Shown here in pieces: positions 20 to 747 of a stretch of DNA of 747 bases (position 1 is the stretch's first letter; every line of letters starts with the position of its first letter). Position numbers and translations under genes: made by a program. The stretch comes from Escherichia coli (GTDB lineage Bacteria; Pseudomonadota; Gammaproteobacteria; Enterobacterales; Enterobacteriaceae): assembly GCF_003334385.1 (NCBI RefSeq), contig NZ_QOWN01000147.1, one strand, 5' to 3'. The notes under the pieces are model-generated. The model did no database searches, was not told the origin of the DNA, and saw only the letters and a list, made by a program, of their open reading frames with translations.

Positions 20-352
20 CGAACGATTGGTGCACCTGACGGAAGTTACAGCAATCTGGGTTCTCACCGGGGAACATTTAACGGGAGAAATAACGGCAGA
101 GGAACTTTGTTTGTGTACGCTTCCGGTGGAAATGGTGCCGGTGGCGGTGATTGCGCCAACACATCAAATCTTCAGGGCTATGTGAACGGCGCTTTCATTG
201 GTATGAATGCCAGCAATAACCCCTCCTACGGAAAGACAGCATTTATTTCATTTGCCGTGCCAGTGGGAGCGTCATATCAAATCATCTCCAGACCAACACA
301 AAATTACGCCTGTGGTAACGGTGTTTTCTCTGTGTATGCCTATCAGATGTGA
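1..352 (+). CDS. pilV: 5'-partial CDS: alternative C-terminal variable cassette of a PilV-like minor pilin/adhesin (Gly/Asn/Ser/Tyr-rich), stop TGA at 350-352
   Basis: Frame is open from the window edge (codon phase starts at base 2: TGC CAA TCC GGT GTG TGG = CQSGVW) to the TGA at 350-352. The GTG at 14 listed in the ORF track lies inside the repeat with no Shine-Dalgarno upstream, so the true start is presumably upstream of the window. About 20 Gly in 112 residues and 2 Cys (GDCANT, NYACGNG). The gene symbol is inferred from the shufflon context, not from recognised protein sequence. Confidence 0.65.
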   Translation, partial: CQSGVWRTIGAPDGSYSNLGSHRGTFNGRNNGRGTLFVYASGGNGAGGGDCANTSNLQGYVNGAFIGMNASNNPSYGKTAFISFAVPVGASYQIISRPTQNYACGNGVFSVYAYQM

Positions 353-356
353 GTCC

Positions 357-747
357 CTAGCTGGCTTTAACAATGTAGTTGAATGCAATATTTTTGGGAC
401 GCATTTCTGTGGTACTCCCCTGTGCCCAGTATGGCATACCACTATGATGCCCTTTCAGCCATCCGCCACGTTCGTGATAGACGCCTGATTGATCGGCCTG
501 ATAACTCAGGAGTTGTCTGTTCCGATCACCATCAAGTCCCTTCCCGTTATCCCAGCCACGGATAAAAACACCGCGCAGATCGGGCAATTTACAGCTAGGA
601 TAAGCACGGGCAAGCTGAGGATACCGGGAACAGGAAAACGACTGGCCGTTCATCAACAGATAGCCTTGTGGAGGAGTGGCAGATGGCCACGGGATAGGGC
701 TTCCCACCGGGTAGGATTCAAAGCCAACCCACACACCGGATTGGCAC
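357..747 (-). CDS. pilV: 5'-partial CDS: alternative C-terminal variable cassette of a PilV-like adhesin with a phage tail-collar-like motif, stop TAG at 357-359 (read on - strand)
   Basis: On the - strand the frame is open from the window edge (phase starts at base 746: TGC CAA TCC GGT GTG TGG = CQSGVW) to the TAG at 359-357. Contains ...LMNGQSFSCSRYPQLARAYPSCKLPDLRGVFIRGWDNGKGLDGDRNRQLLSYQADQ..., which resembles the conserved core of phage tail-fibre collar domains (NGQ...YP.L...LPDLRG.F.RGWD) as I recall them. No RBS or start of its own. Gene symbol inferred from context. Confidence 0.65.
   Translation of the reverse strand, partial: CQSGVWVGFESYPVGSPIPWPSATPPQGYLLMNGQSFSCSRYPQLARAYPSCKLPDLRGVFIRGWDNGKGLDGDRNRQLLSYQADQSGVYHERGGWLKGHHSGMPYWAQGSTTEMRPKNIAFNYIVKAS
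729..747 (-). repeat. 19-bp shufflon-type repeat, inverted copy (putative Rci/sfx recombination site, right boundary)
   Basis: Seen directly: 729-747 CCACACACCGGATTGGCAC is the perfect reverse complement of 1-19. On the - strand it encodes the same C-Q-S-G-V-W peptide in the same phase as the left copy. Confidence 0.75.

Follow-up and report, generated by a model that had tools for sequence, protein, structure and literature searches.

Shufflons have been in the literature for decades (Komano's 1999 review, as cited in PMC5350095), and PMC5350095, PMC11852207 and PMC9045228 cite work on R64, pCT and TP114 in which inversion in vivo depends on Rci and recipient specificity in liquid mating depends on the cassette. 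The asymmetry of the sfx sites restricts Rci to recombining inverted pairs of them (PMC11852207). In R64 (IncI1), an Rci-type recombinase is encoded downstream of pilV, and segment A, with sfx sites of the family GTGCCAATCCGGTNNNTGG, holds two convergent, promoterless C-terminal cassettes set stop to stop. The IncK2 shufflons of pDV10, pDV45 and pTMSA1088 (PMC5350095) are the same system as the one considered here, in which our DNA lies between two repeat-g sites; the available portion of that paper gives the order of the repeats and carries no comment on the spacing between stops. Finally, a fusion of the PilV domain PF04917 to the collar domain PF07484 via an invertible segment has been reported (NAR 2023, PMC9881135), in which, on its authors' reading, a receptor-binding domain of phage origin has been repurposed to recognise recipients. 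Their example is locus CP084655.1, found among pilus gene clusters, whereas our DNA belongs to an IncK2/Z plasmid and has classical sfx sites.

The stretch analysed here, hereafter the window, is 747 bp long and is a complete g-g segment of an IncK2/Z conjugative plasmid shufflon of Escherichia coli. It is 100% identical to part of the IncK2/Z plasmid NZ_CP147067.1 and 99.9% identical to its counterparts in the IncK2 plasmids KR905384, KR905386 and KR905390. The window matches 415 plasmid records, mostly from Escherichia and Shigella, and 409 of the 415 are predicted to be conjugative. Its features are the following.

1-19, + strand: sfx recombination site of the repeat-g type, GTGCCAATCCGGTGTGTGG, forming a perfect 19-bp inverted repeat with 729-747
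2-352, + strand: alternative PilV C-terminal cassette of the R64 PilVA type, 116 codons and TGA, without a start or promoter of its own
353-356, no strand: non-coding spacer GTCC between the convergent stop codons
357-746, - strand: alternative PilV C-terminal cassette of the phage tail collar/tail-fibre-tip type, 129 codons and TAG, without a start or promoter of its own
364-395, + strand: weak AU-rich hairpin (364-386) and U5 run, AAUAUUUUU, within the last codons of the - cassette and 12 nt past the + stop; a candidate leaky terminator, not significant, for the orientation that expresses the + cassette
729-747, - strand: inverted copy of repeat-g, which joins the pilV constant region in loci L001 and L002

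The 19-mer at the two ends is exactly the repeat-g of IncK2 plasmids, for which arrangements such as g-g-e-e-e-e-h-f are given by Seiffert et al. 2017 (PMC5350095). Each sfx combines a 12-bp arm that is conserved (GTGCCAATCCGG) with a 7-bp core in which the crossover takes place, and when read in frame it encodes C-Q-S-G-x-W, the start of each cassette (C-Q-S-G-V-W for repeat-g). The pilV reading frame passes through the site at 729-747 without interruption (...SCQSGVWVGFESYP...). Members of this 19-mer family bound every shufflon segment in the loci compared (L001-L012), with 4-8 copies per locus against 0 expected by chance; they always occur in inverted pairs, and they delimit segments of ∼490-750 bp separated by 8-bp spacers. 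The gene order runs from the pil genes to pilV, then through two to four sfx-bounded segments to a tyrosine recombinase. In L001 and L002, the window stands at the 3' end of pilV, the gene that closes the type IV pilus (pil) cluster, and the shufflon is followed by a gene annotated as a site-specific integrase and then by tra genes. The constant region of the fused PilV matches Shufflon_N (Pfam PF04917, E = 5e-61 and 2e-49). The integrase lies on the pilV strand, starts 51-62 nt past the last sfx, and matches Phage_integrase (PF00589, E = 1.5e-22), which identifies it as a tyrosine recombinase; it shares 94% identity with an IncI2 shufflon recombinase, the protein with which it was compared. 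The region thus displays inverted sfx sites, an Rci-type recombinase, a Shufflon_N constant region joined in frame, and alternative arrangements, and we found no evidence contradicting its identification as a shufflon segment. We put at roughly 93% the probability that the window is one invertible shufflon segment of an IncK2/Z (IncI-complex) plasmid and that the two stops mark the 3'-3' junction of two alternative PilV C-terminal cassettes.

The identical 747-bp segment is found in both orientations. In L001 and L002, pilV continues into the - cassette; in L007 and L010, it continues into the + cassette and terminates at window position 352. Elsewhere it is not adjacent to pilV at all: in L008 it occupies the rci-proximal end, three segments from pilV, and in L009 it is internal and pilV-distal. 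We propose that the tyrosine recombinase Rci, encoded just downstream, would recombine the inverted sfx sites at 1-19 and 729-747, and, because these sites lie inside the reading frame, inversion would fuse either the + or the - cassette in frame to the constant part of pilV. The constant N-terminal portion would be transcribed from the upstream pil operon, and inversion would swap the C-terminus of PilV, the adhesin at the tip of the conjugative type IV thin pilus. The cassette not selected, having no start codon, leader or promoter, would be silent. On this model the cassettes fill the segment from end to end, the 4-nt spacer is probably functionless leftover non-coding DNA, and RNA polymerase, once past the active stop, would most likely go on to transcribe the silent cassette in antisense, as untranslated 3' sequence. 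The original prediction of an active cassette followed by the antisense of a silent one applies to the pilV-proximal arrangements, but in the distal ones both cassettes are silent (L008, L009); because the segment can lie two to three segments from pilV in other plasmids, the picture is limited to pilV-proximal placement.

The window resembles R64 segment A in the features given above, and its + cassette is 71% identical to PilVA, but the two differ in several respects. The stops of the R64-type segment A overlap (TTAA), whereas those of the window are separated by 4 nt; the sfx core triplet is GTG in the window and ACG in the R64 type; and the partner of the A-type cassette is A' (73 aa) in R64 but a 129-aa tail-collar cassette in the window, so that the segment measures 747 bp rather than 574 bp. 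The IncI2 plasmid p979 (L006) carries an extra sfx with 1 mismatch at 4521-4539, 17 nt inside the terminal sfx at 4538-4556 (region 4511-4556); the frame entered from the outer sfx stops after 14 codons, and the inner sfx gives an intact 73-aa A' cassette. In two plasmids typed as IncI-gamma/K1 that have an R64-type shufflon, an ISEcp1-blaCTX-M-1 unit sits inside a shufflon segment (L005 4479-8012, L011 5480-9013); one cassette is disrupted, with 19 codons to the stop, and the 3.5-kb resistance insert is flanked by an inverted sfx pair.

The junction has the layout that had been predicted. The sequence at 344-362 reads ...CAG ATG TGA GTCC CTA GCT..., in which the + frame, crossing the left sfx site, stops at TGA 350-352 and the - frame, crossing the right one, stops at TAG 359-357; GTCC at 353-356 is the sole non-coding stretch, and a 4-nt spacer indeed leaves no room for a terminator. 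The description of a compact cassette pair likewise stands, the pair being two alternative cassettes in one invertible segment. The + frame opens with C-Q-S-G-V-W and runs for 116 codons, the - frame runs for 129, and the two sfx-framed ORFs jointly span 743 of the 747 bases. When the interior of the segment was shuffled 20,000 times with dinucleotide composition preserved, sfx-framed ORFs averaged ∼31 codons, and the stop-to-stop gap was 15 nt or less in only 8 of the 20,000 shuffles; an analytic estimate of the probability that both frames are open is ∼8e-6. The near-complete coding occupancy of the window is thus far from random expectation.

Compared with other shufflons, however, the 4-nt spacing is not special. 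Every cassette was traced from sfx to stop in the 12 loci, which yielded ten segment types (IncK2/Z, IncI1-type and IncI2) with stop-to-stop spacings of -4, -4, -4, -4, 4, 9, 9, 15, 36 and 48 nt (median ∼4), the value of -4 denoting stops that overlap, as in TTAA or TTAG. For the R64-type shufflon of pESBL, published coordinates give -4 (C'/C), +1 (B/B') and -4 (A'/A) (PMC4288162). In shufflons, cassettes are as a rule packed closely 3' to 3'. A pair of homologous segments, one from IncK2 and one from IncI2 plasmids, has a gap of 9 nt in each, but the sequences differ (CAAAGTGAT vs CGATACTTA); because neither the length nor the sequence of the spacer is conserved, no separate function is apparent for the 4-nt gap. 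A conserved spacer function was rejected on these grounds, namely the range of -4 to +48 nt and the differing 9-nt sequences. The two longest gaps (36 and 48 nt) are unusual and belong to L012. At 4431-5645 of this IncK2/Z locus, cassettes are re-paired, an A-type cassette having a different partner, and GTG and TCG cores are mixed; such re-pairing shows that, over evolutionary time, segments have exchanged cassettes by reshuffling.

The + cassette is related at the amino acid level to the C-terminus of R64-type PilVA, with the identity given above, and more closely, at 78% identity, to the A cassette of IncI2; Pfam has no match for it, and NCBIfam has no family for either cassette of the window. 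Because dS between the + cassette and the R64 and IncI2 A cassettes is saturated, a dN/dS value could be obtained only for the R64-IncI2 comparison, and it was 0.058. RefSeq annotates silent shufflon cassettes as genes in their own right: window positions 113-352 (+) carry a 'hypothetical protein' (WP_000271302.1) whose start is an internal GTG, and in L002 a 'Prepilin, shufflon protein A' (WP_242647289.1; 5906-6352, +) starts in the adjoining segment and spans two sfx sites. Both look like annotation artefacts, as does a 'phage tail protein' (WP_119837423.1) placed on the - cassette of L009 (4857-5255, -).

The - cassette is not homologous to R64 A', and the PilV fused to it matches the Collar domain (Pfam PF07484, E = 3.4e-12). 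Over >90% of its length it is 42-48% identical in amino acids to the C-terminal tips of phage tail fibres, its relatives including those of P2, HK106, KP12, and Aeromonas and Vibrio phages. Several of these phage records have a tail-fibre assembly gene annotated under or beside the match; none is annotated with the shufflon cassette. A copy 87% identical to the - cassette is present in L003, and dN/dS between the two is 0.036. In the comparisons that could be computed, both cassette types are under strong purifying selection and behave as constrained coding sequence. The collar cassette of L003 has a different partner, whose inferred stop, read by eye, lies ∼5 nt away, and nucleotide homology between L003 and the window breaks exactly at the stop codon. 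Cassettes thus act as modules that are joined at their stops. L003 (3540-4389) and L004 (3640-4507) each have a single sfx left and no annotated rci, so pilV is frozen there on the collar-type cassette; by eye, L003 has a degenerate-looking sfx (GCAACAATCCGGTGTCAGG) and a possible inverted remnant of the 3' end of rci, and L004 retains just the last ∼110 nt of the + cassette.

We looked for signals that might end or start transcripts at the junction. A fold scan of 330-380, which the original prediction had proposed as a check, gave structures no better than those of shuffled sequences (z = +1.1 and +0.14 for the two strands), and across 330-380 and 310-400 on both strands z ranged from -0.55 to +1.1, with no fold beating the shuffles. 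The consensus scan called no terminator at the junction, and no Rfam match was found in the window at E ≤ 1. An intrinsic terminator between the cassettes was therefore rejected, there being no G+C-rich hairpin with a U tract between or just past the stops. Farther along, the scan called a terminator-like site at 497-510 (+), but its stem is only 5 bp long and it is weak and at chance level (z = -1.06). On the pilV-sense strand it is the sole such site in L007, in which the + cassette is expressed; in L002, that strand has none from pilV through the shufflon and rci, and the counts in both loci are at or below shuffle expectation. The RNA directly past the + stop (353-460) folds slightly better than shuffles (z = -2.2). 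Because there is neither space nor signal to halt RNA polymerase past the active stop, read-through into the antisense of the silent cassette is a reasonable expectation and a plausible one, though to say that it must occur is too strong. In each of the untranslated tails there are 78-nt windows in which C makes up 28-36% and the C/G ratio is 1.3 to 2.3, and such C-rich, G-poor antisense tails are compatible with Rho loading, so that Rho-dependent termination could take place there.

The spacer between the last sfx and rci bears on whether rci would need such read-through. It was compared in three loci.

L002 4305-4366 (-), L006 5134-5194 (+) and L012 5646-5707 (+): rci spacer

Between IncK2 and IncI2 plasmids this spacer conserves TTGCAT-17 nt-TACCTT while the intervening bases vary, and it contains a Shine-Dalgarno-like motif (GGAAGG/GGAGGG) in both; the IncI1-type spacer of L011 is unrelated. 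Judged by its sequence, TTGCAT-17-TACCTT may be a weak dedicated promoter of rci, in which case rci would perhaps be independent of read-through. RNA sequencing of an IncI plasmid has reported shufflon expression as fragment counts, in which read-through is not resolved (PMC12672017), and in the papers that we consulted there is no report on whether the transcript past the active stop reads through to rci or is terminated by Rho. We regard it as speculative and improbable that the antisense tails link rci expression to that of the pil operon or let plasmid copies with different arrangements exclude one another. If they did, every pilV mRNA would carry the antisense of the unselected cassette or cassettes, and the coupling of rci would be tuned by Rho polarity. 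Copies of opposite orientation in one cell would then form a ∼700-bp sense/antisense duplex that is degraded, and this decay would amount to allelic exclusion, with one PilV type per cell.

Other explanations of the stop-to-stop arrangement differ from ours in what the segment is or in what its packing is for. In the G segment of Mu, the C segment of P1 and the Min system of p15B, inversion likewise swaps C-terminal receptor-binding parts while the constant N-terminus lies outside the segment, and the - cassette, with its Collar domain, is homologous to fibre tips of this kind, as would be expected if the window were an invertible tail-fibre segment like those of phages, operated by a serine invertase of the Gin/Cin/Pin/Min group. 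However, those systems use serine invertases (Gin/Cin/Min), different crossover sites and an enhancer, and they carry a tail-fibre assembly gene in each half, whereas the window is bounded by sfx 19-mers rather than 26-bp gix/cix-type sites and has no chaperone genes. The 12.7 kb of context contain no recombinase other than the tyrosine recombinase, no tail-fibre assembly gene or serine invertase is annotated nearby, and the constant part is the Shufflon_N domain of PilV in a pil/tra conjugation context on plasmids. The sfx ends, the tyrosine recombinase and the pil/tra context rule out a serine-invertase phage segment, and we give it virtually no credence. Nor does it seem at all probable, if marginally less remote, that the cassettes are two independent convergent genes, each with its own expression signals. 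PGAP does place CDSs on silent cassettes ('hypothetical protein', 'phage tail protein', 'shufflon protein A'), but as starts it calls either a GTG inside the cassette or an ATG of the adjoining segment, from which the frame crosses two sfx sites, both frames of the window are open through sfx and begin with the shared C-Q-S-G-x-W fusion motif, and the cassettes lack the prepilin leader and constant domain. Independent promoters within the segment were what the original prediction took to count against it; the consensus scan found one promoter-like match in the window (9/12, at 367-394, +), which is at chance level (0.8 expected), is directed away from the + cassette, runs antisense to the - cassette, and is unable to drive either in sense.

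The remaining alternatives accept the shufflon segment and concern its transcription. It is possible, though we doubt it, that the tight, terminator-free packing has itself been selected because it keeps rci coupled to transcription of the pil operon: a bidirectional terminator between the cassettes would uncouple rci in every arrangement, so segments would be kept free of terminators and of space between the cassettes. The position of rci on the pilV strand so close behind the last sfx, its description as a member of the pil operon (PMC11852207), the absence of terminator-like sites along the pilV strand of L002 across shufflon and rci, and gaps of 48 nt or less in 10 of 10 segment types all agree with this idea. 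However, the untranslated RNA, ∼2 kb of it, would need to evade Rho, the conserved -35/-10-like hexamers lie within the fixed spacer ahead of rci, terminator-like sites are at chance level rather than depleted, and L012 tolerates its two long gaps. Quite unlikely, in our judgement, is a terminator for the + orientation embedded in the - cassette, formed by the hairpin at 364-386 and its U5 run, by which pilV transcripts of the A type would end ∼45 nt past the stop. The hairpin is followed by AAUAUUUUU 12 nt past the TGA, and it is kept in the 87%-identical L003 copy, where it is more stable (-8.3 vs -5.5 kcal/mol) and where 3 of 3 substitutions relative to the window preserve pairing. But all three are synonymous transitions, and transitions preserve pairing by default. 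The stem is also AU-rich and weak, its z scores (-0.45 in the window and -1.08 in L003) are not significant, the consensus scan did not call it, the U run is dictated by Lys-Asn codons of a conserved peptide, and there is no counterpart for the - orientation (z = -0.32). We thus retain the reading in which two alternative cassettes of an invertible shufflon segment meet at the junction, with a spacer of no special importance.

The feature is ordinary and already known, since the shufflon system, the IncK2 segment and the PilV-collar fusion have all been published and the spacing can be read from published coordinates. It is a reminder that silent cassettes are routinely mis-annotated as independent genes. 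The modular behaviour of the cassettes, together with homology that breaks at the stop codon, explains how a phage tail-fibre tip could enter a shufflon as a new PilV specificity, and a new specificity would bear on the recognition of recipients by resistance plasmids such as the blaCMY-2 IncK2 plasmids.
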